Below, in pieces: positions 2,851-49,094 of a stretch of 64,000 nucleotides of DNA. The DNA is from a virus (lineage: Duplodnaviria > Heunggongvirae > Uroviricota > Caudoviricetes), in the IMG/VR virus record IMGVR_UViG_3300003973_000001, positions 1 through 64,000 of that record. One strand, 5' to 3'. Each line of letters begins with the position of its first letter. The stretch's first letter is position 1. Made by a program: the position numbers and the translations under genes. The notes beneath the pieces were generated by a model. That model did no database searches. It saw nothing but the letters and a program-made list of their open reading frames with translations, and was not told where the DNA came from.

Positions 2851-3420
2851 CTGAAGCAGTTTTTAATACGCTATGATGAACTTCCTCCTTCTGTAAACAG
2901 CTACATTAAACCGAGTGCAAAGGTTATGGGTGGCAAGGCGATTGTACATATGTATGAAACGTCTCAAGCAAAGGATTTTAAAAAGAGATTTCAAGCTTAT
3001 TTAAAGCGAGAAGTGGCTAAACAGGGATGGGATAAGTCATCTACTGCAGAAGGACACTTTTACTTGGATTGCGTATTCTACCAGTCCAGAACAAATCAAG
3101 ATAACAATAACTACTACAAAATACTATGTGATGCACTAACTGGAATCGTAATTGAGGATGATAAGAACATTCTAGTCCGTACCCAATGGGTTATGTACGA
3201 TGCTAAGAATCCGCGTTTTATGGCTGTATTACGACCAGTTGAATACAAAGGAATATTTAGAAACCAAGAGTCCTATGGCAGATTCTTTGAGGATAACTGC
3301 TTCAATTGTAAGAAAGATAGCGAGAAATGTGCTATTCTTCGTAAGGCAAAAGAAGGTAGGGTTCAAGAAGATATCGAACAGGATAATAAGGGGTTTGTTT
3401 GCAAAAAGAGGAAGAGATAA
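2851..3420 (+). CDS. rusA: RusA-like Holliday-junction resolvase
   Basis: Motif YYKILCDALTGIVIEDDKNI matches the RusA catalytic region. The track ORF starts at ATG 2926, but the conserved RusA N-terminal motif (ELPPSVNSYIKP) is encoded in-frame upstream without an ATG. Start uncertain: CTG at 2851 or ATG at 2926. Confidence 0.7.
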   Translation: MKQFLIRYDELPPSVNSYIKPSAKVMGGKAIVHMYETSQAKDFKKRFQAYLKREVAKQGWDKSSTAEGHFYLDCVFYQSRTNQDNNNYYKILCDALTGIVIEDDKNILVRTQWVMYDAKNPRFMAVLRPVEYKGIFRNQESYGRFFEDNCFNCKKDSEKCAILRKAKEGRVQEDIEQDNKGFVCKKRKR

Positions 3421-4557: not shown

Positions 4558-4986
4558 ATGGTTGAAATACTGAGGATGAATTATGAAGAAAGTGTTAGAG
4601 TACACGAAGAGAATGGAATAATGTTAGAAAAGAAAATGTGCTACAACAATGTATTTAATGTATTATCTTATCATACTGGAAAGTTTCGCAGTGGAGAATG
4701 GCGCGTTGCATACGGATATTGGACTGCAATAGATGGTATTATGGCTAGACATTGTTATATAGTTGATAAGGATAATAATGTAATTGACCCTACAGCACCA
4801 CTTTCTACTGACGAAAATGTCAAAGATAAGAAGTATCTCACATTCAAAATAATTGACGGTCTAGATTCATATCTAGACCTTATAAATGAACATGACAGAG
4901 AACCTGCTCTATATAGAGCTTTCCTAGAAGAAGAAAAGGAAGCTCACGAATATGCTATGAAGAATAACTTAATTCTTATAACATGA
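4558..4986 (+). CDS. hypothetical protein
   Basis: ORF track. Confidence 0.55.
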   Translation: MVEILRMNYEESVRVHEENGIMLEKKMCYNNVFNVLSYHTGKFRSGEWRVAYGYWTAIDGIMARHCYIVDKDNNVIDPTAPLSTDENVKDKKYLTFKIIDGLDSYLDLINEHDREPALYRAFLEEEKEAHEYAMKNNLILIT

Positions 4987-5113
4987 GTATCATCTGTAGT
5001 CATCAATGTCATGAAGCCTATTGTATAAGAATTGGCTTTGTGACATAATATGGTTACAGATATACTATATAGTATATACTGTTACCATTAGAGACACTAA
5101 GGAGGATACGAGT

Positions 5114-5281
5114 ATGAGTAGCAAAAAGAGAGTACTCAATCCAGTAGAAATTAAAAAAGATGTAGATTACATTCCACTAGGAAGAGCATTCGATTTCTGG
5201 AACAACGAGGGAGACGATATTTATGACGAAGTCTATGGGGAAGACAGTGAATCAGGGCGAGGTATGGATAGCAAACGTTAA
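5114..5281 (+). CDS. small acidic ORF (55 aa), antitoxin candidate
   Basis: TAAGGAGG RBS at 5098-5105, ATG at 5114. Overlaps the MazF-like gene in another frame. Acidic C-terminus (DDIYDEVYGEDSESG). Confidence 0.3.
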   Translation: MSSKKRVLNPVEIKKDVDYIPLGRAFDFWNNEGDDIYDEVYGEDSESGRGMDSKR

Positions 5282-5567
5282 GTTCGTCCAAGATAATCAA
5301 ACCAAAGTCAGACCAGTCTTAGCAATAAGCTTAGAAATCGATGGGGATGACGATGTTGTCGTCCTCCCTGTCACTTCTCAGAATCCAAGAAATGACTACG
5401 ATGTAGAAGTTTCGGATTACAAAGGGACTGGATTGTTAAAACAACCATCGTACATAAGAACATCAAAGCCATTAACAATCGAAAAGAGAGAGCTTAAAAG
5501 AAAAATAGGCGAAATCAAAGATGTTGACCTAGCGAACGCATTGGAAAAGTTTCGTTCATTATTTTAA
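5223..5567 (+). CDS. MazF/PemK-like (CcdB/MazF fold) toxin endoribonuclease
   Basis: GEVWIANVKF...TKVRPVLAIS...VVVLPVTSQ...YIRTSKPLTIEKREL matches the MazF/PemK pattern (GDI-WxxxF...KxRPxLVxS...xxPxTS). Start is ATG 5223 or ATG 5235. Confidence 0.6.
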   Translation: MTKSMGKTVNQGEVWIANVKFVQDNQTKVRPVLAISLEIDGDDDVVVLPVTSQNPRNDYDVEVSDYKGTGLLKQPSYIRTSKPLTIEKRELKRKIGEIKDVDLANALEKFRSLF

Positions 5568-5573
5568 GCAGAA

Positions 5574-5612
5574 AAGATGGAAGATTCATAGTCTTTCATC
5601 TTTTTATTTTTC
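5574..5612 (+). terminator. rho-independent terminator after the MazF-like gene
   Basis: GATGGAAGA-ttcata-GTCTTTCATC stem followed by TTTTTATTTTT. Confidence 0.55.
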
Positions 5613-5616
5613 TCTG

Positions 5617-5728
5617 ATATCTCAAAAGACAAGTATTCTCTACTCTATGAGATATGATACCAATTTCATAATTATACTTAATATCTCATAAATATAAGTA
5701 ATCTTAACTTTCTGAGATGTCTTACAAC
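5617..5728. repeat. four operator-like half-site repeats (TGAGATAT / ATATCTCA) in alternating orientation
   Basis: gatatctca (5621), tgagatatg (5649), atatctcat (5685), tgagatgtc (5716). Confidence 0.4.
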
Positions 5729-5794
5729 CTCAAAAAATGACTACCTATAATAAAGCTTATGTAAACTAACTAAAAGTAAGTAGGTAAATAAAGC

Positions 5795-5831
5795 AAAACC
5801 CTCCTGCATGAACAGGAAGGCTGTTTTAGGA
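5795..5831 (-). terminator. rho-independent terminator for the small minus-strand gene
   Basis: CCTTCCTG-ttcatg-CAGGAGGG then TTTTGCTTTATTT on the minus strand. Confidence 0.5.
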
Positions 5832-5950
5832 TTCTGTATATTTTGTTGTATATTTGTTATGTAGATTTTACATAGCTATATGCTACCAGAGCGTCCTCTG
5901 GTGTATCGATACTCCCCTATTGTACTAAATGAGAGAGCGAATATCAATAT

Positions 5951-6112
5951 CTAATTTTTAGTTGCTTTCTTAGCAATATTATTAAATTTCTTAACTTCCT
6001 CAATATTCAAATCTTTTAGTTCTACATCTCTAACAGAACCATCCGTATATATCCCTACAGGTATAAGATGACCGTTCTCGTCTTTTCTTGCTCCAATAGT
6101 TACTCTAATCAT
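5951..6112 (-). CDS. small hypothetical protein (53 aa)
   Basis: Strong AGGAGAGG RBS, ATG at 6110-6112. Own rho-independent terminator at 5795-5831. Divergent from the XRE gene. Confidence 0.45.
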   Translation of the reverse strand: MIRVTIGARKDENGHLIPVGIYTDGSVRDVELKDLNIEEVKKFNNIAKKATKN

Positions 6113-6241
6113 TTATACTTCACCTCTCCTCATTTTATATAATAGCAAAAAATAGCCTCGCTCACTAACTTAACTTTTCTTGACCAATCGGTTAAGTTTT
6201 GTTAAGATAGCCTTACTATAATTTTACAAAGGAGAATCTAC

Positions 6242-6595
6242 ATGTCCGATATTGCTCATGTCACCGCAAAAAGAGTTAAAATGTTAAGATTAAAGAAAGG
6301 ATTGACTCAAAAGAGTCTTGGGGAATTGGTTGGGGTATCTGAAGCATTTATATCCATGATAGAATCTAGGTCATCTACTAACAAGAGACCATCTGGGAAA
6401 ACTATATCTCTTATAGCAGAAGCCTTAAACGTATCAACTGATTACTTATTAGGATTATCTAATACAGAAGATTTATTACCTTACTCTGATACAAGAAGAG
6501 AATTTGAAGCAATCATTGAAAAGGTCGAGCAGTTAGATGAGGATAAGCGTGTGATGGTCATAAAGATGATTCAATCTATGGTCAAAACATTATAA
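6242..6595 (+). CDS. XRE-family helix-turn-helix transcriptional regulator (CI/Cro-like)
   Basis: HTH block LTQKSLGELVGVSEAFISMIE. Sigma-A-like promoter upstream (TTGACC-17-TAAGAT and a TATAAT at 6216). Confidence 0.8.
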   Translation: MSDIAHVTAKRVKMLRLKKGLTQKSLGELVGVSEAFISMIESRSSTNKRPSGKTISLIAEALNVSTDYLLGLSNTEDLLPYSDTRREFEAIIEKVEQLDEDKRVMVIKMIQSMVKTL

Positions 6596-7040: not shown

Positions 7041-7071
7041 TGACATATATATATGGATGAAGGAGGATACT

Positions 7072-8166
7072 ATGAACGTCCCAGTCAAAGGAAACGAAAA
7101 GATTACGCAGTTATTAAACGAATGGTACATTGAAATTCGTGCCAGACGAATTGGTCAAGCTCATAGATTGAAAGAAGAGATTGATAAAAAGATTGATAGT
7201 ATAGAAAAAGACCAAACTCTACTATTGTATTACTCTCTCTTAGACTTTCGATACCAGTACATTTTAGACAATCTAGGAGTCTCTGTTAACAGCTTTGATA
7301 AGGTTGAAGAGTTTGAGATTCCAACGAACAACTTTTTAACTTATTACTACCACTTTTTTAAGGCTATTCATGCTTCTGGTATTGGTAACTACATGATAGC
7401 AAAAGAACACTTTGACAAAGCTGAATCTCTTCTTGAATTAGTTCCAGATGAGATTGAAAAAGCTGAGTTCTACTACAAATTAGGCGCTTTCCACTATGAC
7501 ATCTACGAATCACTTAACTCAGTTAAATATACTTCAAAGGCAAAGGAAATCTTTGAGCAACATGAAAATTACGAGCGAAACATAGGTTTCTGCGAGAATC
7601 TTCTTGGAACTGCTTGTACAAAGCTAAGAGAATGGGCTTTGTCAGAAGAGCATCTTATTAAGGCTATGGATATTTTCAGTAAGCATGGAGAAGAAAAATA
7701 TGTTCTAATGGTTAGACATAACTTAGGATATATGTATTCTAGTCAGAACTTATCTCCACTAGCAATTAGATATTTATCAGAGGTGACAAACCACAATCCT
7801 AGACATCACAAAGCTTTATTCTTACAAGCTAGAGAGCATTACAAATTAGATGAGCTTGATATCGCAAAAGATTTGGCTGATAGAGGATATAGTATCTGTC
7901 TTGAGTTGGGGAATATAGAGTATAAGCACCTTTTTGCAATTCTGAAATGTCTTATCTCGAATGTGTCTAGTGATGAATTGGAGAAGGTTACAATTGAAGG
8001 AATATCTTACTTTGAAGGCGAATCATTATATGAGTATATAGAAGAGAGTCAAGAGTATATGGCTGTTAAGTTCTATGAAGAAGGCAACCATACTAAATCT
8101 AGTGAATACTTCTATCTAGCTTCAAAAACGAGACAAAAAATTAAGGAAAGGGAGTCTTTAAAATGA
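7072..8166 (+). CDS. rap: Rap-family (RNPP) TPR quorum-sensing regulator/phosphatase
   Basis: About 365 aa. N-terminus ...KITQLLNEWYIEIRARRIGQAHRLKEEIDK...LLLYYSLLDFRYQYIL resembles Bacillus Rap N-termini. TPR-like repeats throughout. AAGGAGG RBS before ATG 7072. Confidence 0.8.
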   Translation: MNVPVKGNEKITQLLNEWYIEIRARRIGQAHRLKEEIDKKIDSIEKDQTLLLYYSLLDFRYQYILDNLGVSVNSFDKVEEFEIPTNNFLTYYYHFFKAIHASGIGNYMIAKEHFDKAESLLELVPDEIEKAEFYYKLGAFHYDIYESLNSVKYTSKAKEIFEQHENYERNIGFCENLLGTACTKLREWALSEEHLIKAMDIFSKHGEEKYVLMVRHNLGYMYSSQNLSPLAIRYLSEVTNHNPRHHKALFLQAREHYKLDELDIAKDLADRGYSICLELGNIEYKHLFAILKCLISNVSSDELEKVTIEGISYFEGESLYEYIEESQEYMAVKFYEEGNHTKSSEYFYLASKTRQKIKERESLK

Positions 8167-8297
8167 AAAAAGTAGCATTGGGCTTAATGGGAATTTTAAC
8201 AGCTTTAACTATGATTGTGAGCGTTCAGTCTAATAGTGATAGTAAGCCTGCATCTCCTACTATTATGATGATGGAACATGGAGACCATGGTGGTTGA
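8163..8297 (+). CDS. phr: Phr-like secreted signalling peptide precursor (44 aa)
   Basis: ATG overlaps the rap stop (ATGA). Translation MKKVALGLMGILTALTMIVSVQSNSDSKPASPTIMMMEHGDHGG has a signal peptide plus a short polar tail. Canonical rap-phr arrangement. Confidence 0.55.
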   Translation: MKKVALGLMGILTALTMIVSVQSNSDSKPASPTIMMMEHGDHGG

Positions 8298-18060: not shown

Positions 18061-21000
18061 TTATAGTTTATTCTTGCTTTTTTGTAAAGCAATTTGTGGA
18101 AGAGATAGAATCGCATCCTTAATTCCGTCAGCAGTCTTAATATTAGGGAATTCAATATTGTCGATAGTGATTTGAGTTGGAGAACTCGCAACACTTCTAG
18201 ATACCGCCTGTCCATTAAATGTGTTCGGCATTCGAGAAAGTAATGCATCCGCGAACACTTTCCCTAGCTCACTGCTGATTTCAGTAAATGTCTTTTTCAA
18301 TTCATTGTTAAAGTCATTAGAAATAGGCTTCATAATGTCTTTTACTGGTAATTTAGACAATACATCTTCGTTGCCTTTGATATACTTAGAATACGCATCT
18401 ACCAGTTCTTTAACATAGTCTGATTGGATTTGTGGAAAGTCTCCTAAGATAGACTCAAATGCATCTCCAAGTTTTCCAATTGCATCTTCAAACTCTTTAA
18501 CAGATTCGTAGTCGCCCTCTTTAGCATTAGAAAGAATCTTATCTAACTGACTCAAGTAATCCTCTTTTGCCTTCTCCTCCATTTTCTGAAGTTCTAGCTG
18601 AGCTTTCTCAAGGTCTTCTTTAGCCTTATCAAGTTCCTTCTGGTCTGCTTCATAAACCCAGTCCCATTGACCCAATTCATTCTGCTTTAACGTCTGAACT
18701 TTCTTCTCTTGGTTAAGATTATTAATCTTATTCTGAAGCTCAACAATATCAAGCTGTTTGTTTAGATAGTCCATTTCGAACTTGCTTAGCTTTTCCTGCT
18801 TGTCAAGAAGTGCTAATTTATCCTCGTTAATACTAGTGCCAAGGTCAGCCATTCTCTTATACATTTTCTCTAATGCAATTTCTCGTTCTAAACCTTCTAT
18901 CCATAATTCTTGATGTTGCTTCCAAGCCTTCTGAGTCTTGCCTCCGAAGAACTCTTTCTCCATTCTTCCAGTGATATTATCGAATGAGTTATCCATAATA
19001 CTCTTGTTAATCTGAAGCAGTTCTTTATTACTATCATTAAGTTGCTTATTGTATTGCTCAACTTGTGCATTGATTAGATTCCACTCGAAACTTCCTTTTT
19101 CATACAGACCAAGCTGTTGATTCAAGTAGTTTAGGGATTTTTTAATTTCAGCATTCTTGTTTTGCTCCACATTAAGCTGTTCGCCTAGAATAGTACCCTT
19201 TGTTGCTGTATTATTCTTGTCTAGTAAGTTAACGATACTTGTGAGGTAATCTAGACTAGCAGATGCCTTGTCATACTCTTTAACAGCTTTGCTAAGTAAA
19301 CTAAATTCAAATTCAAATCGCTTTTTAATAGAATCTTTGATACTATTTTGAGCGCCTACATTATCCTTTTCATAATTAACAATTTGCTGTTTAATTTTCT
19401 CTACTTGGTCATCTGTTAAACTTGTATCTTGTAACTGACGATTTAACTCTTCAATTGCCTCATTATTGCCCATAATATTAGCTCTCAGATACTTTTCTTG
19501 TATCTTCATACTATCGATAATATATTTGTTTGTAAGGGATTCTTTGTCATCTGGGCTGAAAGCTGAGGCAAGATTGCGCTCATACTCTTTTAAAAGTGAC
19601 GATTGCTCTTTCTGAACCTCTTTTATATACTTCGTAAGCTGTCCTGCTACAAGAGTACCGTAGCCTCTATCAATCTTATTAATGTCTCCCATATCTCCTA
19701 GTACTGAATATGATATTTTTGACATCGAGAAGTCTTGACCATTCTTATAGGCATTCTCTAAGCTTAAAAGTTGATTATACATTTGTTTGTTGATATCCAA
19801 TGTAGAATTGGCAACCCACTCTGTTCTCTCAACGTTTTTCTTAGCATATCCTGCCAATGCTTCTTGGACTTCTTTTTCAAGATTAATGCGCTCTATAGCC
19901 ATCTGCTGAAGTCTATTGTCTCTAGATAGGTCAAGCTCAGTAATATTGGAGCTATATAAGTCTCCAACTCCTGTTCTGCTTAAAAGACCATCTTGCAAGT
20001 TCTTTACAACATTATCAATCTTAGAGTTATTTTCATCGATTGCAGAATTAAATTTAGTCATATCTTCAGTAACACGACTAATTTCAATATCATTCATCGC
20101 TTGACGATACTTCATAACAGCATCTGCCTGAGCTAGAATTGCAGAACTAACCTTCTGTAGCTGAGACTGAATTGTAGAGCCATTCTCCTTGAATTGTACC
20201 GACATGGTAGATAATCGATTGAACTCATTAATCAATTCAGACATGTTCTGCTTAGACTCATTTAAAGCTCTTGCATTAAGATGTAGAGCAAGCTCCTTAT
20301 CTTGTGAACCAACGAATCCAAGCTTCTTAGAAGTTATAGTGTCAGAGTTTGTTACTTTTGTAAGTACCGCATCTACTCTCTTCATTACAGGTTCAAGTTT
20401 TTTCAGTTCTTCAGCGATTCTAGATTTTTCAATCGTGTCATCTAAGCCTTTTATATTAGAGTTTAGAGTAGCAATTGTATCTTGTAAGCCATTCATCTCC
20501 CCAAACAAAGACTTCCATCTATTAAGAAGTTCCTCAGCCTTTTGAGCCGACTCCCCTTTGAGACCTCTAGCATGGTCAAGGTTATTGATTTTATTAGAGT
20601 TTGTATCTACTGAGAACCCATAACCTCTAAGCTTATTAAGGATATCATTCATCTCATTATCTTTACTGCTATATAAAGATTGATTATAAGAGATTTGTTG
20701 ACGCATCAGAGATTGCTGTTGTTTATAAAGCTGAATAAGTTTCGTTTGGTCGTCTTTTGCATCAGTGATTGCACGAGTAAGCTCTTTTAATTGCTTCTCA
20801 AGGTCTCCACCTCTATATGTTTCTTGCCCCCAGTAGCGCCAAACAGCTTCGCTCACCGTAGCATTCTCATTCGCAGAGTTATCTCTGTCTGAATTATATT
20901 TAGAAACACCAGATACGCTTCTACCAACGCCTTTTACTGGAACTCCATTGGCGCTTATAGAAGAGCTTCGACTAGAAGAGACATTTGCTACACTTGAAGA

Positions 21001-24000
21001 TTTACCTTGCTCTGGAGTAGCTGATACAGACTTGTCAACTTTCGCACCAGTTCCACTTCCTGCAACTTTGTCCAACCAACTCTTAGCCGATTTAGCCTGT
21101 TCGATTATCCAGTCAAGACCTTTAGCAACAACGGTAGTTACAACTTCTTTAGGAATTTCACCGTACTTTGTATTAAGAATACCAATCTTCTTTTCTGTTT
21201 CTGAGGCTTGCTTTCCGCTTCCCTTAATTTCCGCTTGAACCTCTTTCTCCGCACCTATATGATTACCAATGGCTATAAGAGCTTCTTCAGCAGTCTTAAT
21301 AGTTGTGCCTTTTTCTTTTATCTTAGCATCAATATTATTCTGAATTTCTTTTTGTAAATTTTTGTCAGCCGCGATTTTCTCTGGAGCAATACCTGCATAT
21401 TGTTGAAGTTCCGCACCTAAAAGTTCGGTTTCTTCTTTAGAAAGTGCAGTTCCTTCAGCAACCTTTTTCTGAACATTAGCTAAATCATCAGAAGATTTAC
21501 GCATATTGCGGTACTGAGCAATCATGGCAGGATAAACCGTAGTAGCTTGCTCTGCTGTTAAGTTAGAAGCCTTCATATTCTTACCTTGTTTTAAAAGTGC
21601 TTCCGCAGATGCATTGATAGAATGTTGTGCAGTTTCATATTCTTTACCTGCAGTGTTGATTTTCTTACCTAATCCATCGTATTCACCTTGCAAAGTCTTA
21701 AGTGTTGCTTGCCACATTTTACGCTTTTGGTCATCTTCTGGAGACGTTCCTAACTTGCCCATAGCCTCTTCAATCTCATTCATCTTCTTCTTGACGTTAT
21801 CTTGCTCACCTTTTAACTCTGCAATAGTTTGCTTGGATGTTTCAAGCTTTTCCCAGTCTCCAGTCATCTGGGAAACGATTTCAACAGTAGATTTCTCAGC
21901 TAACTTATCTTTTCTCTTTTGCAACTCATCTATCTTAGACTGAATTTCATCGTAGTTGTTAAATGTAAGCTTAATATCTATCCCAAGGTCTTGACCTTGT
22001 TTTTCTATCTCTTCTTTAATTTTCACAAACTCATCTTGTTCCAACCAAGATTGCGTACCTTCTTGGTTAGGGTCTTTATCGGTTTGTCTTGCCTTGTCTA
22101 GCTTCTCTTGTAACTTATCAAGGTTGGCTTGAGTCTTTTCAATCATACCGTTGACAATAAAGTTTGTTGCTTCGAATTTCTTAACCGACTGGTCGTACTC
22201 TAGAGCTTGTTTTTCAGCGCTCTTAAATAGGTTGTCGTAAGCCTTACCCATATTTTCAAATACAGGAACTCCAACGAAATCTAGTAATAGCAAGGCATCC
22301 CCAACTAAAGGAATCATGCCAAGTACCTTACCAATCCCCTTACCTACTGCAGAAATCTTGCTACTGGTCGCATCCAACGCTGTACTTGCATTTGTTGCGC
22401 TTTGAACAGCATTTCTAGTACCATTATTTCTGTCAGCATCAGCGTTGTTGTTACTATTATTATTTCTGCCACCAGAGTTAACGTTTCTTGAACCGCCATT
22501 ATTAATATCTACAGTAGATACATTGGCTAATCTTGCCTCTTGATTATATCTCCGCTGTGCATTTGTTGCATCGCCAATTTTACCTGTAAGAGTTCCAAAG
22601 TAATTACCTACTTGAGACAGGTCTCTCATAATATTACCTGCACCAGTTCTCATAGTGTCTGTTAACTGTCTCATACCATTGCTCATAGCATGGATACCAA
22701 CAGCAAATGCAGTGAACTTTAAAGCTTCCATGAACTTCTCATTCGTTGCTACATCTGCAAGCTTTTGAAGTGCCACAGTTACAGCATCAACTAATCCTGT
22801 AAGACCTGTAGAATTTCCGATATTATTCATTAATTCCATCCAAGCGTTCTTTAACTCTACTAACTTGAACTTAAGAGATGATGCCTGTTTCGCATGCTCT
22901 AGGTATGCAGAACCATTTGTACCTTGACCAAGTTGGTTATTCGTTTCTCCTGCAACCTGTTCAACTCGTTCCCATTGGTCGATGATACCACCAAGAATTT
23001 CGGCATGCTCCTTACCTGCTAGATAGAATTTTGCAGTACCTTTTTGTTCTTGAGAAAGAGAATCCCACTTTTTAACTAGGTCTCCTAAGATTGCATCACC
23101 TTCACGCATCTGACCATTAGAATCTTTAAAGTCTACTCCGATTTGTTTGAACCATCCAAATTTCTTTTGAGTATCTGGAGTCAACTGAGAAGTGATATTA
23201 GTCATGTTCATGGCAATCGTCTTAATACCTGTACCAATACGTTCCCCACCCTTACGAGTAGCCTCCTGCGCTCCTGTAATCATACCTGTTAAGTATCCAA
23301 AGTCGATACCAGTATCTTTTGCAGTATTTGCAGAACGAACATAAGCTTTCCCAAGGTCATCCATTTCGATGGCATGGTTATTGGCAGTTTCGTTCATTAC
23401 GTTGATTACGTCATTGGTTTCAAGACCCTGCTTTTTGAACGCGTTTAATGGAACTGACATGTATTTAACCATGTCGTCTGGCTTTAAGTTACCTACGAAA
23501 GAACCGACTAGCGATACTTTCGCTTTCTCTTGAGCCTGCATAAATGTCTCACCAGATGTTACCCACGTTTCTACAGCCTTCATATAATCAGAGGCAGTTA
23601 CCCCTAAAGTAGAACCTACATCAAAGGCTGTATCTTTAAAGCTATTTAAATCGGCTTCTGATGCCTGTGCAACCTTAGACACACCAATAAACGCTTCATC
23701 AAGCTCTTTCATTGGCTCTATAATAGCTCGAATAGCTTGCTCGGCATTTGCATATGCAGAATAGAAATCAATAACACCATGAGCATCGTTACTCATTCTA
23801 TCTCTCTCTCTGGCTTCCGAGCGAAGACGATTTAATCTTTGTTGGGCATCTTGAGCCTGTTCAATAGCATGAATTTCTCTCATTCGTTCTTGCACAAGTG
23901 AATTTTGGGCTGACAGTGATGCTTTCATTGCTTCAGCTTTTGACTTTTCTCCAGAAAGCGCTCTTTCAATCTCAGCTCTTTCTCTTGTGCCTGCGAAAGC

Positions 24001-25563
24001 TAAATCTCTACTAAGCTGATTAATGTTTCGCATTACAGTTTCATATTCTTTAAGTTTAGCAGTAACCGCATCTTGCTCTGCTCTATGTTTAGCTGTAATT
24101 TGGCTACGTTCCATCTCTCGCTGATTAATCTTGCCTGTCTCAGTTAATTGCTTCTGCATTTCGCGAGTAACAAGCTGAACACTTTCAAACATTTGTCTGT
24201 TTGCCTGTTGGTTTCGTTCTGCCAGTACAAGTTGTTCACGCAATGCTCTTAATTGAGAATTCTCTGCAACGCCTGCGTTCCCCATACTCTTTTTAGTATC
24301 TAACTCAGCAATTTTCATCTTTAAGCGATGAACATCTTGAAGGTCTGCTTTCATAACAGCTAGAGCTTCTTTTTGTTCCTGTTTGGTTTTTCTTTCTTCT
24401 TCAGTAAGCTTCTTGGCATCAGCCAATGCTTGCTTTTTAGCTTCAGCTTGTTGGACTTGCAACATACCAATCGTTCTGAGATTGTCCATCTCATCTTTTT
24501 GAGCAGAGGTCATCTTATCTTGGAGATTATGTTTCTCTTTAATCTTATTTTGAGCCTTCTCATAATAACCGAACAACTCTTGCTGAGAAGCCTTTTCTTT
24601 CTCTGTCGCATTAACCATTTGTACAGCAAGAGCATTTTTCTTAGCTTCTAATTGAGCAATTTTTGATACAGCCTGTGCAATTTCATTATTAGCTTGCTTC
24701 TCCTGTTGTTTTAACGCCAATAGCATCTTGGTTTCTAACGCAACCTCTTGTTGACGTTTAAGCTCCGCCATAGAGCCATGCTGAAGGTCGAGTGCGCCAT
24801 ACTGATATTTCTGTTTGAATTGGTCTGACAAGATTCCCAATTGCTCTTTTTGAATACCGCGTTCTCTCTCAAGTATTTGGAAATGTTTCCCTTGTGCGTT
24901 TACCTGTTCCATCTCAATCTGATGGATTCTTCTAGCAACACCTTCAAGTTCTTTCATGGCTTTTAATCTATCTTCAACAACCTTTACGTCACTTGTTCCA
25001 TCTGGTTTATTAGTTGTCGTCTTGGATACGCCAGAGCCAACATTCTCTGTTACAACTTTTGTTTTTAACGTTGTAGTACTGCCATCTTGATTTCTAACCT
25101 GTCTAGACAGAGTACTAATTTTTGCCCATGCGCCTGCTTGCTCTTTTAACGCTTCCGTTTCGCCCTTAGTTTTAGACTTAAGGCTGTCCATAGCATCATT
25201 CATTCGTTTTGCGTCACTAAGAACTTCTTTTAGAGGAGCGTCTAAATCAATGCCTTTGACATCTATTTTTAATTCACGCTTCTTGGTTAGCTCTTGGTCG
25301 AGCTGTTTCAACTCTCTATGGAAAGTGTTTACAGCTTTTAAAGCATCGCTAACATCTGCCTTTAATTTAATTTCAAAGGCATCTTCTTTCAAAGCTGTTT
25401 TAATTTTAGCTCTTGCACTTTTTAGACTATTACCATCAATGTCAATGTTAATCTTACCTTCGAAACCATTCTTAACTTTTGCCCATTTCTGAGCTAATTG
25501 AGCCTGTAGTTCTCCAACCGTAGGGAATTCGACACCGACTTCAATTCCTATCTTATTTGACAC
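18061..25563 (-). CDS. tail tape-measure protein (about 2500 aa)
   Basis: Giant coiled-coil Q/E/K-rich protein with a central hydrophobic/glycine region. The track start (TTG at 25590) lies inside the 19-bp motif. A GTG at 25561-63, 10 nt after an AGGAAGG RBS, is more plausible. Confidence 0.85.
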   Translation of the reverse strand: MSNKIGIEVGVEFPTVGELQAQLAQKWAKVKNGFEGKINIDIDGNSLKSARAKIKTALKEDAFEIKLKADVSDALKAVNTFHRELKQLDQELTKKRELKIDVKGIDLDAPLKEVLSDAKRMNDAMDSLKSKTKGETEALKEQAGAWAKISTLSRQVRNQDGSTTTLKTKVVTENVGSGVSKTTTNKPDGTSDVKVVEDRLKAMKELEGVARRIHQIEMEQVNAQGKHFQILERERGIQKEQLGILSDQFKQKYQYGALDLQHGSMAELKRQQEVALETKMLLALKQQEKQANNEIAQAVSKIAQLEAKKNALAVQMVNATEKEKASQQELFGYYEKAQNKIKEKHNLQDKMTSAQKDEMDNLRTIGMLQVQQAEAKKQALADAKKLTEEERKTKQEQKEALAVMKADLQDVHRLKMKIAELDTKKSMGNAGVAENSQLRALREQLVLAERNQQANRQMFESVQLVTREMQKQLTETGKINQREMERSQITAKHRAEQDAVTAKLKEYETVMRNINQLSRDLAFAGTRERAEIERALSGEKSKAEAMKASLSAQNSLVQERMREIHAIEQAQDAQQRLNRLRSEARERDRMSNDAHGVIDFYSAYANAEQAIRAIIEPMKELDEAFIGVSKVAQASEADLNSFKDTAFDVGSTLGVTASDYMKAVETWVTSGETFMQAQEKAKVSLVGSFVGNLKPDDMVKYMSVPLNAFKKQGLETNDVINVMNETANNHAIEMDDLGKAYVRSANTAKDTGIDFGYLTGMITGAQEATRKGGERIGTGIKTIAMNMTNITSQLTPDTQKKFGWFKQIGVDFKDSNGQMREGDAILGDLVKKWDSLSQEQKGTAKFYLAGKEHAEILGGIIDQWERVEQVAGETNNQLGQGTNGSAYLEHAKQASSLKFKLVELKNAWMELMNNIGNSTGLTGLVDAVTVALQKLADVATNEKFMEALKFTAFAVGIHAMSNGMRQLTDTMRTGAGNIMRDLSQVGNYFGTLTGKIGDATNAQRRYNQEARLANVSTVDINNGGSRNVNSGGRNNNSNNNADADRNNGTRNAVQSATNASTALDATSSKISAVGKGIGKVLGMIPLVGDALLLLDFVGVPVFENMGKAYDNLFKSAEKQALEYDQSVKKFEATNFIVNGMIEKTQANLDKLQEKLDKARQTDKDPNQEGTQSWLEQDEFVKIKEEIEKQGQDLGIDIKLTFNNYDEIQSKIDELQKRKDKLAEKSTVEIVSQMTGDWEKLETSKQTIAELKGEQDNVKKKMNEIEEAMGKLGTSPEDDQKRKMWQATLKTLQGEYDGLGKKINTAGKEYETAQHSINASAEALLKQGKNMKASNLTAEQATTVYPAMIAQYRNMRKSSDDLANVQKKVAEGTALSKEETELLGAELQQYAGIAPEKIAADKNLQKEIQNNIDAKIKEKGTTIKTAEEALIAIGNHIGAEKEVQAEIKGSGKQASETEKKIGILNTKYGEIPKEVVTTVVAKGLDWIIEQAKSAKSWLDKVAGSGTGAKVDKSVSATPEQGKSSSVANVSSSRSSSISANGVPVKGVGRSVSGVSKYNSDRDNSANENATVSEAVWRYWGQETYRGGDLEKQLKELTRAITDAKDDQTKLIQLYKQQQSLMRQQISYNQSLYSSKDNEMNDILNKLRGYGFSVDTNSNKINNLDHARGLKGESAQKAEELLNRWKSLFGEMNGLQDTIATLNSNIKGLDDTIEKSRIAEELKKLEPVMKRVDAVLTKVTNSDTITSKKLGFVGSQDKELALHLNARALNESKQNMSELINEFNRLSTMSVQFKENGSTIQSQLQKVSSAILAQADAVMKYRQAMNDIEISRVTEDMTKFNSAIDENNSKIDNVVKNLQDGLLSRTGVGDLYSSNITELDLSRDNRLQQMAIERINLEKEVQEALAGYAKKNVERTEWVANSTLDINKQMYNQLLSLENAYKNGQDFSMSKISYSVLGDMGDINKIDRGYGTLVAGQLTKYIKEVQKEQSSLLKEYERNLASAFSPDDKESLTNKYIIDSMKIQEKYLRANIMGNNEAIEELNRQLQDTSLTDDQVEKIKQQIVNYEKDNVGAQNSIKDSIKKRFEFEFSLLSKAVKEYDKASASLDYLTSIVNLLDKNNTATKGTILGEQLNVEQNKNAEIKKSLNYLNQQLGLYEKGSFEWNLINAQVEQYNKQLNDSNKELLQINKSIMDNSFDNITGRMEKEFFGGKTQKAWKQHQELWIEGLEREIALEKMYKRMADLGTSINEDKLALLDKQEKLSKFEMDYLNKQLDIVELQNKINNLNQEKKVQTLKQNELGQWDWVYEADQKELDKAKEDLEKAQLELQKMEEKAKEDYLSQLDKILSNAKEGDYESVKEFEDAIGKLGDAFESILGDFPQIQSDYVKELVDAYSKYIKGNEDVLSKLPVKDIMKPISNDFNNELKKTFTEISSELGKVFADALLSRMPNTFNGQAVSRSVASSPTQITIDNIEFPNIKTADGIKDAILSLPQIALQKSKNKL

Positions 25564-25584
25564 TAAGCTAACACCTTCCTTTTT

Positions 25585-25603
25585 CTGCAATACTTTAGTT
25601 TAA
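25585..25603 (-). promoter_or_regulatory. 19-bp motif class A variant (upstream of TMP)
   Basis: ctgcaatactttagtttaa. Confidence 0.5.
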
Positions 25604-29337: not shown

Positions 29338-32300
29338 TTATCTGTTGTTTAATTGGTTTTTAAGGTATCTCACCTGCTCCGAAAGCTCTTGTATTGCCTT
29401 CCAAGCTAATGTTGTCATCCCATAACCATCTACTGTTTTACCATCTTTCCCTTGAATTAATTTAGGTGCTTCTTCTGCAATTAATCCAATGTTCAACTTT
29501 TCACTGTCATCTTGACTATTGTAGTGGTATAGCCTAGCCTTAGAAGCATTGATTATATCTAATGCACTTCTTTCAAAAGCCGAGATATTCTTCTTATAAT
29601 CTCTAGAAGAAGTATTCTCTATAATACCTGCTAATCTCGCCCAATCAGTATCATTCCCATTACGAGTTTCAAAGCGACCCATAGTTTGTTGATACTTGAA
29701 GATTGCATGAGTGCCATACTGTTGCATGTAGTTAGCCCCTTGAATCCAATAACCCATTAAACGGCTTCCATTTTGGTTAAAAGATATACCGCCACCATAT
29801 GCGTTTATTTCAGTTGACTGGTCTGCATTCTTGCCAATACCAGTTAAGAACTTAACACGACCATTTGCATCCTTAATCGACCAAGTTGCATATTTATCTG
29901 AATTGGGATTACCTACAATATTTCCCCAACCATTAATAATTGCTGATTGATAGCTTTGAAATTGAATAGCAGGTTCGTCCGCATTCTTGCCATGAATCTC
30001 GATTCCTGATTCAGTGGTAAACATTAATCCTGCGCCCGAACCATTTGATAAACCTTGAAACTCAACCGTAGACTTTACAGACCCAACGCTAAATTCAAGA
30101 ATTGACGGAAAGACCTTCGTGTTTCGACTACCATGCGTAACAGTCATTACTGAAGGCTGTATAGCAGTACCTTTATCACCAAAAGGCGAGCCACTTTCAG
30201 CCATTTCAAAGACCTTAACAAGACCTTCTTTTAACTCAGCGTAGTTCTGCTTCGTACCATCAGAAGCACCGTAACTTTTAAATGTGTTACCCTCAATGAC
30301 AGCCTTAATTTTAGGATTTGAAGCGTTAATACTTTGATAAGTAACACCCTTAATCGTACCACCGACAACTTTATCACCACTGATATTCTGAGATTTAAGA
30401 TTATTGATAAAAGCAGTATGAGCGAATAGGCTTGCTACATCTAACTGTTGAGCCTTAATAGAGCCATCAACAATTAATTCTCCAGTGTATCGTTTGCGAA
30501 CTTCTATATCTCTAATATAGTAATATCCACTAGTTCCACCATCTTTTTCAAAGAATAATTGGATACGAGAAATTGTCTTCGTGTCATCTGGAGCAGTCGT
30601 AATCTTAAGGTTCTTAATTACACGAGTGTCTGCTGTTGTAGGAAGAGCAGATATCGCCCCTGCATTTACCCAAGTACCATCAGTGTAATGATATCGCATA
30701 ATTAGATTAAGACTTGTTACACCTGCATCACGATACCCATTGAAGGCAATGTAATACTCATCGTTAACCTTAAACTCAACATAAGTATTGTCCATTATTG
30801 TAAGTGAAGCATAAGCTCCATTCCCAATTTTGAAGAATCTCTTATTGCTTAATAGAACCGTAGGATATCCATTAGGATTTTTCTCTTCGTTAATCTGAGA
30901 CAAGTTAGTAAAGTCGCCAATCGCAATCTGCTGAGCGAAGATTGTATTTGTGGCAATTTTTCCACCATTGATTAACGTTGTCCCTGATTTCCAAGAGTCT
31001 AGTAGGCTCTTTGCACCATTCCAGTTAGAAGCAGAAGAGATTTGTGCATCAAGGATAGTTCCACTTAACTTACTTGAGTTAAATGTTCCATTAGAGTTGA
31101 TATTAGAAGCTCTGTCCCATGTAGCCTTGTTACTATTGATAGCATTGTTTGCTGTGTTTGCTGTATTATTTGCCGTATTGGCAGTTCCTTGAGCGCCATC
31201 AGCTAATGACTTAGCTTTCTGATTAATTACCTTGACTAACTGTGCTTTCTTATCATAATAGTCATCAAATTGACCTCGGAATGTAGCGCCAGTAACAGCA
31301 GAAGTCGTTGTCATATTCGTTAGAATACCGCCAGTACCATTAAGAACAGTGTTTAGAGTGTTATAGGAATTAACAAAGTTTGTCTTCTCTGTTGTGATAC
31401 CATATGTTGTAGCCAATACTTCGTACTGAGGTTTCTCAGAAAGCATTACAGCCCACTCTTTCTTCAATTGAACTTTTTCCACTGGAGTAATCTTACTGTC
31501 AGAAGACATGTCTGCGATAGAGTTTTTAGCCTCTTGAGCTTTTGCATCTGCCCCAGTTCCAATACTTCTAGACAATTCATTAATCTTTCTAACCAGTTGA
31601 GCCTTCTTATCATAGTAGTCATCAAACGTATTTCTAAATGTTTGACCATTGACATCGCTTGTTATAGTAATGTTAGAGATAAGAGGTGAAAGGAGAGTAT
31701 TTAACGCATTATAAGAATTAACGTAATTTGTCTTTTCAGTAGTGATGCCGAAAGTATTTGACAATGCCTCATACTGAGGTTTCTCTGCTGAAATCGTTGC
31801 CCACTCTTTTTTTAACTGTTGCTTCTCAAGTGGAGTTAACTTATTATCATTTGACATATCTGTGATAGAGTAGTCATAGTCTGTAGCATCAATAACTGTC
31901 GCGTATGCAACATGCCAAGTTAAAGGTAATGTTCCACCTTCTAGGTTGAAGAAGTTCGTTGAACTGAAAGTTCCTGCTGAACCGCATTCTATTCTAAATA
32001 AGTATTCTTCCCACTTACCTGTACCTGCTGTTGGAGTTAACCACTCTTGCTTACCGCCTGTTCCAGTTGAATTACTAGCAAATACAAGCTTAGAACCAAC
32101 AGGTATTTTCGCGACAATTCTAGTTATAAAAATAGCATTTGCTCTAGAAGCAGTTTGGAATGAGAACCCACCGTAAGCAGGAGAGATAGGTAATGCAAGA
32201 GATTTTATCTCCAAGACATGTGTTGAATTCGTTGGAGCATCACTTGGCTTAGCAACCCTAGTTACTGTTACGTTTGTATTAGCTGAGTTGTTATATACTT

Positions 32301-35300
32301 TAACGTCATTAAGTCCATTCTTAAACATTGGGTCGCTGTATAAGACTTTCCCATTTAACCCTTGAGTTAATGTTCTCGACAACTCATTAATCTTTCTGAC
32401 TAATTGAGATTTTCTATCGTAGTAATCATCAAACTGCGCTCTAAACGTTGCACCAGTTACACTAGAAGTTGTCGTCATGTTTGTAAGTATTCCGCCACTT
32501 CCATTTAATGCTGTATTCAGAGTGTTGTACGCGTTAACGTAATTATTCTTTTCGGTAGTAACACCAAATCCATTCCCCAAAGCTTCGAATTGAGGCTTCT
32601 CGGCGACCATCACAGCCCATTCCTTTTTAAGCTGAACCTTTTCTACAGGAGTGATTTTGCTATCGCTAGACATATCTGCAATAGAGTTCTGAGCTGTTTG
32701 AGCTTTACTGTCCGCATTAGTACCAATCGTTCTAGCTAGTTCATTAATCTTTTTAACCAATTGTGACATCTTGTCGTAATAATCATCAAATGTATTTCTG
32801 AATGTCGCTCCGTTGATATCACTAGTCACTGTTGTATTAGCGATGATAGGAGTAACTGCTGTATTCAAAGTATTATAAGCATTGACATAGTTCGTTTTCT
32901 CAGTAGTAATTCCATAGATAGTAGCAAGTGCTTCATACTGTGGCTTTTCCGCTACGATTGTCGCCCATTCCTTTTTCAACTGTTGTTTTTCTAAAGGAGT
33001 AGCTTTATTGTCGTTTGACATATCGGCAATAGCACTTTGACTACTTTGAGCCTTTTTATCAACGTCAGCAACTAACTTATCGTAATCCTCTGGAGCTAAA
33101 GTGAAATCAGTTTTTCTGTTACCTTTTTCGAGTTTCATTCTCTTAACATAGAATTCTACTCCATTAGCAAGTGCTGTCGTATAGAAGATGACTGTTCCAT
33201 TTCCTACACCAGTCCCCTTGAATGTATGAGAATATTCTCTCCAAGTAGTGTCAACGTCTACTGTTTTAACGTCAATACTCTCTGCGCCAATGTGAAGCTT
33301 ATGATTTCCTGTACTAGCCTTCATCATTACGCTAACAGTGTACTCTTGGTCTTTCTCAAATACTTTAGTAGCAGAAGAACCGCCACCCAATCTCTGATAA
33401 ATACCTGCTCTTCCTGCTCCAGTGTTAGGAGTAAACTTGAAAGCCTTATCCTCTCCATCGTCTACAACTGCAGTTTGAGCCACGTTTGAATACCAGTTAG
33501 TAGCACCTTGAAGCAATCCTGCATTTAGGAATATGTTCCTACCACCGACAGACATGTTGTCGAGATTTCCTTGAACTCTGGCAATAGCCTCATCAATATC
33601 CTCTTGAGCCAAGCTGTAATCTGTAACTACGTTTCCTAGCTCACCTTTTACATTTCTTATTTTAAACGTAACAGGCGCACCGCTATTATTAACTAATCCA
33701 ATGTTAGATTGGTCGTATAAATCACTAGTGTAGTTATCCTTGTTCTTCCAAGTAAACCAACATTTAGTCCACGTATTAGCTTTTAAGCTTTTGCTAGAAG
33801 TCTGTCTCAATGCAGTATCGTCATTATCATTAGATGTGGACGTTCCAGTCACAGGGAAGTTATTTACATCAGCATTCCAAGTAGTATCGATAGGAGAATA
33901 AATCTCAAAGCTAACCGCGAACCAACTCCCAATAGGAACTACAGAAGTTTTATCGATTATTCTTACGCCTGCACCCCATGAACCACCTGCTCCACTATTA
34001 GCAGTTAAAGTCCAAGTATTTGTAGCTTCATCATATGATGAAGAGGTTACGTTTATAGGAGATATCTGTTTCTTTCTAACAATGTTTTTCGCACCGAATT
34101 GCATTCCATCGATTTTATCCTTAGCATCAGTACCTGCGTTAACTTTACCTTGCATAGCAGGGTCTAAGCTTTGGAATGTAACAGCTCCTGTGATATCAAG
34201 ATGTTTGCCAAGGATTTTAACACCTTCTGCACTAGCGTTGATAGAAGTTTTTACATTACCCTTCTTAACAACATTGATAGCAATCTCTTCAGCGGTTTGT
34301 TTAATTTGAGTTCCTTGAGATTCAACAGTTGTTTTCATACCGTCTACATCTTTTTTAACATCAGTAACAGTCTGTGAAATCCCCTTAGTAGTAACTTCGA
34401 TTTCTGATTTCAACTTAGTCGCAGATTCAGTAATCTTCCCATTTGCTTGCTCTATCGTATATACTTTATCAGCTTCAGCTTTAAGTGCAATACTTTTGTT
34501 TAATAATGTAATAGATGTATTATGCTCTTCAATAGCTGTTCCTTGTTGTGTAACAGACTTACTTAAATCCGTTACGGACTGCCTAATCTTTCCTGCGTCC
34601 TGTTCGATTGCTGTTGTTTTCTTTCCTAAATTATCTAATTCAGTTACGGTAAGTGAAATTTTATCATTCGCGACTTTAAGTGCGCCTTCTGCAACTTCGA
34701 CTCTTCCGTTTAGTTTGTCAACTTTTTCATCAGATGCCTTAAGTTCAATAGATTCGTCTAGTTGCTCTAATTTTGTTTGTTGTGTAGAGTATTTATCATT
34801 CAACTCATCAAAGTCTTTTTTCTCTACCGTATTAACTATCTTACCTTCTAAAATTTCAACGCTAGATTCCGCAGTCTCTAATCTATTAGAGTACTCATTA
34901 AATCTTTCCGTTTCTACTTTGGATTTAATAGCATCGCTTAATACCTCCATAGAAGATGATTGTGACTCCACTTTATTACCTAGCTCTGTCACTTCATCTT
35001 TTGTAGCCATAAGCTTAATACTATCTTCTGTCTGTTTGAGAGATGTTTCAGCCTCTCTTAGTCGAGCATCATTCTTGTCCCCAACGCCAATCACTGCAGT
35101 TAGCTTATCGACCTGCGTAGATAATTTAACGCCTAGATTCATAACTGGCGCTCCTGTGCGATTCCCATGGAGAATATCCACTGTATTCCATCCTGCATTA
35201 AATCCAAGAGCAACTTTAGTTCCAATAGTACTCATATGAGCATTTTCGTATATTTTAGCTCCATTCATATAGATGGTCAAACTATCTTCATGAACAACAT

Positions 35301-43631: not shown

Positions 43632-45163
43632 TATTCGGCATCTTTAATACGAACAGTGGTATCAGTTGGCTTTTCTGATTGCGGTCTTCCCTTCTCTTTT
43701 TCTTGAGCTTCGTTTCCGCTCATTGTATGAGAAGTCTGTTTCGCAATCATAAGGTCATCAATCGTTAGAACTTGCTGTTCAAAGACTAATATCATAGCAA
43801 ATTCTATTGGAGTCATTCCGCAATAAGCTAAGTACTCCATACGAGAACCACCAAATGAAAGTTGGTCTTTAGCAGTCTTAATTGCTTCATCTCTATCGAA
43901 GTGTGAAATATTTAAGAATTTCGTTTTCCAAGTGACTGACTTTTTGCTTGCCTTCTTCAGTTCATAATTGTAATAATTAGTAAACATAGGAAGCAGGAAA
44001 CTGTACAGCCATTGGCAATCTACTTGAATAGAACGTTCTAAAGCTTGAGAGCTAGAGTTGTCGTCCGCGAATAACTGAGGTGATACACCTGCACCCTTAT
44101 AAAGTTGCTCAGATGTTTTATCTAGCAACGAGAATTTACCGTCTTTACCAGTTCCGTTAAGCGTAATACCTCTCGTATCGAAAGGATTCGTAATCGCTAC
44201 AGAACCTTCTGGTAAACTCTTTTTAAGAGCATTATGATATTCGTGAACTACTGGAAGCTCCATTAAAGGTCTTCCCTTGTCATCGGTCTCAATTTTAGAA
44301 TGAACAATTTTGGAATTATCCAGTTTATCTGTATCTTCCATTTTGTCTTTTGCATTCTCAATCTTGATTGCATCGATAAGAGCGTTGGCAATCGGTGGCA
44401 AAGCCATACCTCCGTTAGCTAAAACATCGGTATCGATTGTGAATGCTACACCTTTATCCGATACTTGATACCATCGTCCTTCAATCAACTTTTCAGTTTG
44501 ACCGTTTTTGTAAGACGTATAAGCATTCTGTAGCTCTTTTGGAAATACTTCAAAAGTAGCATCAGAAATCTTTGTTACGTCAAATTGGAATCGATATACG
44601 CCATCTTCCACGTATCCAACGCGACAGAAAGCAGGAGCAATATCTTGATAAACAACACCCTTTGAATCTTCCAATTTATACTGATATGTAACACCAGTAG
44701 TAAACAGTTTTTCTGTAAAGATTGGAAGATTGTACTTAGGGTTTAATCTATCTAAATAGACTGCTGTATTAACAAATGATTCCTGCGTTTTCTTCATATC
44801 GCTAGATTTAATCTTCATAGGATTCGTAAGAATTGGGTAAAGCACATGGTCAAATGTTAGCAAGCTACTCATATACTTTATGATTCTCTTGTACATACCA
44901 TTGACCTGTTTCATAGAAGACGATAGCCCTGCAACTTGCACAGCACTCTTAGCAGGGTCTTGAAGCATTGTCTTGAGACGAGATTCGCTCATACCTCTTG
45001 CTCCGTTATTACCACCACTAGAGCCTTTAAAGTTTGCTGAGGCTGATGCGAACTTAGAATGTTCTAGCACCGAATTCGGCTTCTCGCTATTATTCTTGCG
45101 TCTTCGCTTGTAATAATTGTTAGTATTACGATTATTCAACGCTTCTTCACCTACCATAAGCAA
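43631..45163 (-). CDS. portal protein
   Basis: 510 aa, immediately downstream of TerL. Confidence 0.65.
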   Translation of the reverse strand: MLMVGEEALNNRNTNNYYKRRRKNNSEKPNSVLEHSKFASASANFKGSSGGNNGARGMSESRLKTMLQDPAKSAVQVAGLSSSMKQVNGMYKRIIKYMSSLLTFDHVLYPILTNPMKIKSSDMKKTQESFVNTAVYLDRLNPKYNLPIFTEKLFTTGVTYQYKLEDSKGVVYQDIAPAFCRVGYVEDGVYRFQFDVTKISDATFEVFPKELQNAYTSYKNGQTEKLIEGRWYQVSDKGVAFTIDTDVLANGGMALPPIANALIDAIKIENAKDKMEDTDKLDNSKIVHSKIETDDKGRPLMELPVVHEYHNALKKSLPEGSVAITNPFDTRGITLNGTGKDGKFSLLDKTSEQLYKGAGVSPQLFADDNSSSQALERSIQVDCQWLYSFLLPMFTNYYNYELKKASKKSVTWKTKFLNISHFDRDEAIKTAKDQLSFGGSRMEYLAYCGMTPIEFAMILVFEQQVLTIDDLMIAKQTSHTMSGNEAQEKEKGRPQSEKPTDTTVRIKDAE

Positions 45164-48753: not shown

Positions 48754-48757
48754 AAGA

Positions 48758-49039: not shown

Positions 49040-49094
49040 AAAACTGAGGACTAGCCTCAGAAATCATAGTAAGGAGGGCTTACAAATGAATAAA

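Follow-up and report, generated by a model that had tools for sequence, protein, structure and literature searches.

A probable MazF/PemK-type toxin–antitoxin operon with a minimal 55-residue predicted antitoxin on a likely SPbeta-like phage-plasmid

A toxin–antitoxin (TA) pair on a low-copy replicon is a classical addiction module, and abortive infection is an equally standard possibility for such pairs. The best-described relatives of the locus reported here are the Bacillus MazEF modules, in which the antitoxin gene precedes the toxin gene within one operon, as exemplified by EndoA–EndoAI (YdcE–YdcD, PDB 4ME7) and B. anthracis PemK/MoxT (4HKE), and the S. aureus MazEF module, in which a minimal MazE of 56 residues is paired with a Gram-positive MazF. 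A survey of MazF systems noted short antitoxins in which no N-terminal domain could be recognized, which were validated in S. aureus, and retained only pairs with an overlap or spacing of at most 30 nucleotides (nt) (PMC3879964). The MazF inhibitors EndoAI, AimX and YosL place one short segment or helix, with conserved Met, Tyr, Glu and Met residues, in the groove of the toxin dimer, and AimX and YosL are small SPbeta-type phage proteins that bind and inactivate MazF by means of one MazE-mimicking helix (PMC10769878). Here, we analyze positions 5038-5612 of IMG/VR virus record IMGVR_UViG_3300003973_000001 within a stretch of 64,000 nt (the window), which amounts to about half of a ~128-kb element. 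We propose that these positions probably form a self-contained type II TA operon, encoding a MazF/PemK ribonuclease (RNase) and a largely disordered 55-residue antitoxin, that likely serves as an addiction module on a phage-plasmid.

The second gene of the operon (5223..5567, plus strand, ATG 5223 to TAA 5567) encodes a 114-residue product that matches the Pfam family PF02452 (PemK_toxin) with an E-value of 4.2e-15 and a score of 56.3 bits (cut-off 23.1) over positions 2-108 of 109, as well as PHROG 1936, annotated as 'MazF-like growth inhibitor' (E 1e-17). When the window toxin and its relatives are used as a profile, the search also retrieves B. anthracis PemK (4hke), B. subtilis EndoA (1ne8, 4mdx and 4me7) and S. 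aureus MazF from the PDB with E-values of 8e-8 to 1e-4, the Bacillus proteins, which belong to the same Pfam family, being the best matches of solved structure. The assignment to the MazF/PemK type made in a preliminary description of this DNA, based on its letters only, is thus upheld by the family searches. Identity to characterised MazF proteins is ~30%. Arg30 of the 'VRP' motif and Thr52, at the Thr/Ser position of the 'VTSQ' motif, align with R25 and T48 (4hke/7bxy), which we take from structural work on B. subtilis MazF to be the catalytic residues of Bacillus MazF, and the Arg and Thr/Ser positions are retained in all 12 aligned toxins. The gene is under purifying selection, with a ratio of nonsynonymous to synonymous substitution rates (dN/dS) of ~0.18. 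We interpret 5223..5567 as a full-length PemK/MazF toxin that is predicted to be an RNase and to arrest growth. The family is rare, comprising four clusters at 90% identity that all come from the B. cereus group; scanning IMG/VR with the toxin alignment returned a single near-identical contig, and the same scan of genome contigs returned no relative. Matches of the toxin to pPIWI_RE_REase were weak and below threshold and were set aside.

As in MazEF-type modules, a small co-oriented gene lies upstream of the toxin, and the conserved pair is flanked by a promoter-like site and a terminator. This gene (5114..5281, plus strand, ATG 5114 to TAA 5281) encodes the 55-residue product MSSKKRVLNPVEIKKDVDYIPLGRAFDFWNNEGDDIYDEVYGEDSESGRGMDSKR. 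The preliminary description had credited the small open reading frame (ORF) with a strong ribosome-binding site (RBS) and an acidic end. The former is borne out by an AAGGAGG Shine–Dalgarno sequence (5099..5105) separated from ATG 5114 by an 8-nt spacer, and the product does contain the acidic stretch DDIYDEVYGEDSESG, but its actual end is a basic tail, GRGMDSKR. The pair, which we looked for in related elements, is kept in five of them (L002, L004, L006, L007 and L008, the last being a B. wiedmannii plasmid), and the 55-residue ORF retains its length, frame and an identical stop in L002, L004, L006 and L008. The toxins of these relatives are 83%, 84% and 60% identical to that of the window and the small ORFs 80% and 59% identical, the latter value belonging to the locus where the toxin is 60% identical. 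Outside the overlap with the toxin gene, the small ORF evolves with a dN/dS of 0.37-0.46 relative to L006 and L008, at a dS of 0.7-0.9. Inside the overlap, dN/dS is 0.22-0.37 in the toxin frame and 0.7-1.0, that is almost neutral, in the antitoxin frame, and a 3-nt indel (L005/L006) leaves both frames intact. Reading the codons by eye, we trace the apparent conservation of the antitoxin tail (GR.M.S.R) to the conserved QGE[VI]W...ANV of the toxin. These patterns identify 5114..5281 as what is, judging from sequence, a real gene. The preliminary description had made its proposal depend on a family match for the toxin and on conservation of the small ORF in homologous loci, and both were found.

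The 55-residue product has no match in Pfam, NCBIfam, PADLOC or the PDB, even at E-values up to 1 or 10 for Pfam, NCBIfam and the PDB, whereas PHROG 25282 matches its C-terminal end with an E-value of 0.004. AlphaFold2 models it as disordered except for one helix spanning residues 35-41 (DIYDEVY), with a predicted local distance difference test (pLDDT) score of 58. Neither the domain searches nor the AlphaFold2 model revealed, at the N-terminus, a DNA-binding domain of AbrB/SpoVT, ribbon-helix-helix (RHH)/CopG or DUF3018 type, and only ~22 residues precede the conserved motif described below. MazEF-type antitoxins usually bear such a domain and use it for autoregulation of their operon, short antitoxins like the present one being a known exception. 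The predicted antitoxin is accordingly minimal and has no detectable DNA-binding domain. In this respect it differs from EndoAI, which comprises 93 residues with an N-terminal RHH domain and shares no detectable sequence similarity with it; the corresponding toxins are ~30% identical, and the genes of the window overlap out of frame by 59 nt. A loose likeness, which is only suggestive, exists between YDEV in the window antitoxin (Y-D-E-[LVI] in its family) and YMEM in the MazF-binding helix of EndoAI, whose sequence we verified as ...RRGYMEMAKI.... S. aureus MazE is similarly short but of unrelated sequence, and the window antitoxin is more generally unrelated in sequence to MazE, PemI, EndoAI and the partners of DUF3018 type. 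Its resemblance to AimX and YosL is one of role, sequence similarity not being established; those proteins target the chromosomal MazF of the host and have no adjacent toxin gene, whereas the phage in the window encodes both partners.

The motif [FY]DFWxNxxDx[IV]YD, which occurs once in the window, defines a family of small proteins to which the window antitoxin belongs. We collected its members by running a profile against a 5.8-billion-protein set and HMMER, exhaustively, against 1.8 billion representatives; most are 47-85 residues long, one match (P0037) reaching 117 residues. A 30-protein alignment shows no variation at D34, Y37 and D38 and at least 90% conservation at D27, F28 and W29. 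The family is absent from Pfam, NCBIfam and the PDB, and its motif strings were not found in the searchable literature. Two matches were discarded as chance: a PDB hit of the motif profile to subunit 6 of cytochrome bc1 (E 0.24) and a 1322-residue protein, P0025, matched through surface-protein repeats.

The regions preceding the motif vary: the window clade has almost none, P0015 carries an AbrB-like 'KGQVTIP' segment, P0019 and P0022 show weak AF2212-like matches (E 0.002-0.005), and P0016, P0018, P0020, P0021 and P0024 have other N-termini that fall outside assigned families and look helical by eye. One of P0015-P0024 is labelled 'predicted DNA-binding antitoxin AbrB/MazE fold protein' by the Joint Genome Institute. 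We examined eight unrelated loci, corresponding to six motif-protein contexts (L016 and L018-L022) and two plasmids (L011 from Alicyclobacillus and L014 from Pseudanabaena), and found a PemK gene immediately 3' of the motif gene in seven of them. PemK_toxin is called directly downstream in L016, L019 and L021, and L011 and L014 are likewise positive; L022 retains a PemK-like N-terminus where its contig ends, and L018 has a truncated PemK beside an insertion sequence element, leaving L020 with no PemK downstream of its motif gene. The partner toxins diverge down to ~25% identity with that of the window. On the Alicyclobacillus plasmid, the PemK is 38.5% identical and the 54-residue ORF upstream of it reads ILGDEFRFLLNEDDAIYDETFG. 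Such divergence of the PemK partners, combined with the variety of N-termini, indicates that the motif is an old, modular partner of PemK. The proteins P0015 and P0016-P0024 share with the window antitoxin the motif, a PemK gene directly 3' and, in the loci examined except L021 (P0015), an embedded +1 toxin start. They differ in ending 2-6 residues past the Tyr-Asp (YD) of the motif, in a spacing that, in the loci examined, varies between an overlap of 23 nt and a gap of 3 nt, and in possessing a structured N-terminal part, whereas the window clade combines almost no N-terminal part with a 17-codon tail. The earlier proposal that the overlapping acidic ORF acts as the antitoxin gains weight from its conservation in homologous loci and from the occurrence of its motif family directly 5' of PemK in unrelated bacteria. 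We therefore regard the small ORF, from its sequence context, as the probable cognate antitoxin, in preference to an RNA or a distant gene.

More distant PemK relatives are also preceded by small ORFs, of 41-67 residues with acidic and aromatic tails, that do not bear the FDFW...IYD motif. These were seen on plasmid pBTB_502p of B. thuringiensis Bt407, plasmid pPLP3 of P. larvae, a C. perfringens plasmid and Geobacillus phage GR1 (ORFs L009 1329-1499, L010 1295-1498, L015 1308-1493 and L001 2889-3014). Short antitoxins devoid of a recognizable domain seem common around this branch of PemK proteins.

The two genes of the window overlap more extensively than the ~47 nt given in the preliminary description, a value that assumes a toxin start at ATG 5235. 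All close relatives retain ATG 5223, whereas ATG 5235 is replaced by TAC in L002 and L004 and was rejected as the start. ATG 5223 also has its own conserved Shine–Dalgarno sequence, GAGGGAG (5207..5213), located 9 nt upstream and contributed by Glu-Gly-Asp codons of the motif in the antitoxin. Counted from this start, the two genes share 59 nt (5223..5281), and the toxin is read in the +1 frame relative to the antitoxin. Equivalent purine-rich runs are AAGGGAG in L002 and L004, GAAGGGGA in L006 and L008, and AAGGAGG in L018.

The motif codons of the window antitoxin (FDFWNNEGDDIYD, 5189..5227, plus strand) specify the putative toxin-binding segment and also bear the translation initiation region of the toxin. 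This arrangement extends well beyond the window clade. Of the 12 loci compared, 10 have the toxin in the +1 frame; the toxin of L021 (P0015) begins past the antitoxin stop and is read in another frame. The toxin ATG is contained in TATGAC, that is in the Tyr-Asp codons (TAT-GAC) of the motif, in eight loci that stem from Bacillus, a metagenomic host, one other bacterium and a cyanobacterium, while it lies two codons upstream, in GATGCC, in L018 and L019, and in GATGAA or among ATGs just upstream in L011. The toxin Shine–Dalgarno sequence is spelled by Glu/Lys-Gly/Glu-Asp codons directly before the start. Many family members end in YDxL followed by the stop codon; in the loci examined that have this ending, the overlap with the called toxin gene is 14-23 nt, or would be 14-20 nt if counted from the embedded ATG. 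The number of codons read past YD is 8 in L022, 17 in the window clade and 25 in Alicyclobacillus. We interpret the 59-nt overlap as a lineage-specific lengthening of an architecture that, from these alignments, appears common to most loci examined. The preliminary description had viewed the overlap as a hint that the antitoxin might lie elsewhere or be an RNA; with the toxin start written into a family-wide motif and only the tail being longer, it is no such sign. Two further ideas were dropped: a toxin RBS hidden in a hairpin, as folding of the mRNA in the overlap region gave nothing significant (z-score −0.66), and a programmed frameshift fusing both products, which is made unnecessary by the conserved toxin Shine–Dalgarno sequence and ATG and has no fused homologue among the matches.

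Upstream of the pair, a promoter-like site (TTGTGA-17-TATACT, 5038..5066, plus strand, 9 of 12 matches) sits within a 127-nt gap 3' of the preceding gene and is a putative promoter for both genes. Promoter-like sites in the region show no excess over shuffled sequence, and this site is weak on its own; the intergenic sequence 5' of the pair is kept in L002 and L004. A perfect 18-bp palindrome with the halves ATATACTAT and ATAGTATAT (5060-5077, within a feature at 5060..5080) overlaps the −10 hexamer. It can also be parsed as three copies of ATATACT and is nearly identical in L002 and L004, with one change in L002. The upstream sequence of the L005/L006 clade is not the same and shows an inverted repeat (CCATCT...AGATGG) near its −10 hexamer in an alignment read by eye. 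The window palindrome looks like an operator, for which it is a candidate. At the other end, the operon is closed by an intrinsic terminator (5571..5612, plus strand) with a 16-bp stem (5571-5605), a 3-nt loop and a T run, which the preliminary description had already recognized as rho-independent and placed at 5574-5612. Its folding energy of −16.5 kcal/mol corresponds to a z-score of −3.9, and none of 200 shuffled sequences folds as well. In L006, where the toxin is 60% identical, a hairpin of other sequence (−18.6 kcal/mol) occupies the same position.

The window belongs to a large tailed-phage genome, with a large terminase (45151-46902) that resembles YonF, a RusA gene, an antirepressor and an Xre-type helix-turn-helix gene. 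It also encodes a ParM/Alp7A-like segregation actin (60712-61878), which is followed by a 95-residue ORF (61891-62178) that may encode its adaptor. The closest relatives of the actin and terminase are found in B. wiedmannii, B. velezensis and B. subtilis (yonF), on plasmids that are closed circular, non-mobilizable and 118-148 kb in size, and remoter terminase relatives on plasmids of 108-139 kb from Limosilactobacillus, Ligilactobacillus and Vagococcus. The same TA pair, in the same genomic surroundings, is present on the B. wiedmannii plasmid (137.6 kb). Contigs with the pair measure 126-129 kb or 139 kb in several independent assemblies, and all close relatives keep the order RusA, 345-residue ORF, 142-residue ORF, TA pair; the 345- and 142-residue proteins received no family assignment. 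The ORFs scanned in the window, which is half of the element, include no detected integrase. The segregation actin and the circular plasmid relatives point to a phage-plasmid, most likely an SPbeta-like one of ~128 kb from the B. cereus group. They also lend support to the role in plasmid-prophage maintenance that had been suggested for the pair.

In the mechanism that we propose, ribosomes initiating at the stronger AAGGAGG sequence would run over the toxin initiation region, so that synthesis of the antitoxin would exceed that of the toxin. The aromatic and acidic motif FDFWNNEGDDIYDEVY would fold over the dimer of the toxin and obstruct its RNA-binding groove, as do the C-terminal segments of MazE, AimX and YosL, the FDFW...IYDEVY segment being the part expected to bind the dimer and to bar access of RNA. 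The peptide would be labile and outlived by the toxin. Were the element lost or its expression shut off, the peptide would decay and the stable RNase would arrest the cell. The outcome would be post-segregational killing, possibly with abortive infection directed against other phages.

Several points weigh against this proposal. Both post-segregational killing and abortive infection would fit the results presented here. Binding and neutralisation of the toxin by the antitoxin are argued from gene linkage and analogy. The 17-codon antitoxin tail, being nearly neutral, may be functionless, and coupling of the two genes via RNA structure is unsupported at the overlap (z-score −0.66). The AlphaFold2 model of the toxin, computed from a shallow alignment of four sequences, is poor (pLDDT 43), which leaves homology to carry the predicted fold, in this family an SH3-like barrel that forms a dimer. 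The palindrome that covers the −10 hexamer hints at a DNA-binding repressor, and no DNA-binding part is visible in the antitoxin. Finally, an integrase may sit in the other half of the element.

An alternative that keeps the TA pair functional would assign it mainly to the control of lysis and lysogeny, a private MazF favouring lysogeny and the peptide switching the toxin off for the lytic cycle. There is a precedent in phage phi3T, where the active MazF of the host promotes lysogeny and is inactivated when bound by AimX and YosL (PMC10769878). The element in the window is SPbeta-like, as judged from its YonF-like terminase, and the operon is followed, at ~0.7 kb, by an Xre-type repressor-like gene and a rap-phr cassette, which consists of a Rap gene with RapH_N and TPR domains (7057-8166) and a 44-residue signal-peptide ORF (8163-8297) overlapping the rap stop by 4 nt. 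However, the cassette is a variable accessory gene, missing from the close relatives L002 and L004, which retain the TA pair. Moreover, the same type of pair occurs on non-phage plasmids and on chromosomes, and the operon has a promoter-like site and a terminator of its own, with nothing that links it, in expression, to Xre or Rap. We consider lysis–lysogeny control unlikely as the main role.

We hold it to be very improbable that the small ORF is instead a translated leader that tunes toxin translation, with the neutraliser provided by a host MazE, a phage protein or an RNA. Such a leader would account for the toxin initiation region lying inside the small ORF, for the lack of a detected DNA-binding or known antitoxin domain and for the nearly neutral overlap tail. 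It would not be expected to keep a peptide sequence, yet the amino-acid motif itself is conserved, joined to AbrB-like or AF2212-like N-termini and placed beside PemK proteins of only 25% identity, and it is also found in lytic phages with no adjacent PemK. As for an RNA, no Rfam family matches below an E-value of 0.8 across 4900-6300, no ToxI-like tandem repeat lies near the pair, the sole repeat being the three 7-nt copies in the promoter, and the nearest minus-strand promoter and terminator pair that could produce an antisense transcript is more than 190 nt 3' of the toxin terminator. There is scarcely any likelihood, finally, that the PemK-fold protein no longer arrests growth and has been domesticated to process phage or host transcripts with the small protein as an accessory: its toxicity is a prediction, its identity to characterised MazF proteins is low and its family is rare, but the residues aligned with the catalytic ones are retained, the gene is under purifying selection, and strict pairing with an upstream motif gene is the hallmark of a toxin that needs to be neutralised.

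The toxin is a routine member of the MazF/PemK family, and TA pairs borne by phages and plasmids are well known. What is new is an antitoxin motif family that partners very divergent PemK toxins and is able to stand almost alone at 55 residues, as well as the finding that, in most loci examined, the toxin RBS and start codon are written inside the antitoxin motif, which accounts for the 59-nt overlap. A locus with such an overlap would be excluded by the 30-nt limit of the MazF survey cited above, and TA censuses may undercount pairs of this kind. The module also gives a likely stability or defence function to ~130-kb SPbeta-like elements that are widespread in Bacillota, where they are deposited as circular plasmids.

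The motif recurs in strictly lytic Herelleviridae phages of the B. cereus group, in the form LGxxYD[FW]WNNxxDDIYD and within otherwise unrelated proteins. A tblastn search with the family consensus detected it in YungSlug QKE56500 (L013 1378-1746), as LLGPSYDFWNNPVDDIYD (E 2e-4), and at the C-terminus of CP-51 gp206 (L012 1201-1581), where LGSEYDWWNNKEDDIYDKGVGKDE directly precedes the stop (E 8e-3), with a weak match in Shanette (KC595513.2, 19914-19988, E 0.9). YungSlug, CP-51 and Shanette have no PemK beside their motif genes, and no relative of the window toxin was detected in them. It is conceivable, albeit doubtful, that FDFWxNxxDDIYD is a portable MazF-neutralising module captured by lytic phages as a counter-defence, in the form of antitoxin mimics that disarm the phage-plasmid toxin. 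Such mimicry would imply an arms race between resident phage-plasmids, wielding the toxin as an abortive-infection weapon, and invading lytic phages. The situation would be comparable to that of Dmd in phage T4. The presence of the motif in these phages provides a testable lead on antitoxin mimicry.

Further features of the window include an array of 13 tRNA genes (48683-50711, minus strand) and two giant minus-strand ORFs of 2509 residues (18061-25590) and 2216 residues (29338-35988), which presumably encode structural proteins of the tail or tape-measure type in an SPbeta-like virion. An SPFH/Band 7 protein (1723-2556) and the RusA resolvase (2926-3420) are encoded upstream of the TA pair. 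Megablast of the locus found no match in phage records, and only a 171-nt non-coding stretch matched plasmids. This stretch (5657-5827) shares 78% identity with a part of B. thuringiensis plasmid NZ_CP097261.1 that carries no annotation. It holds a terminator-like hairpin (5797-5822) that is readable on both strands, and a minus-strand promoter-like site is present at 5947-5919; the stretch could correspond to a small RNA.

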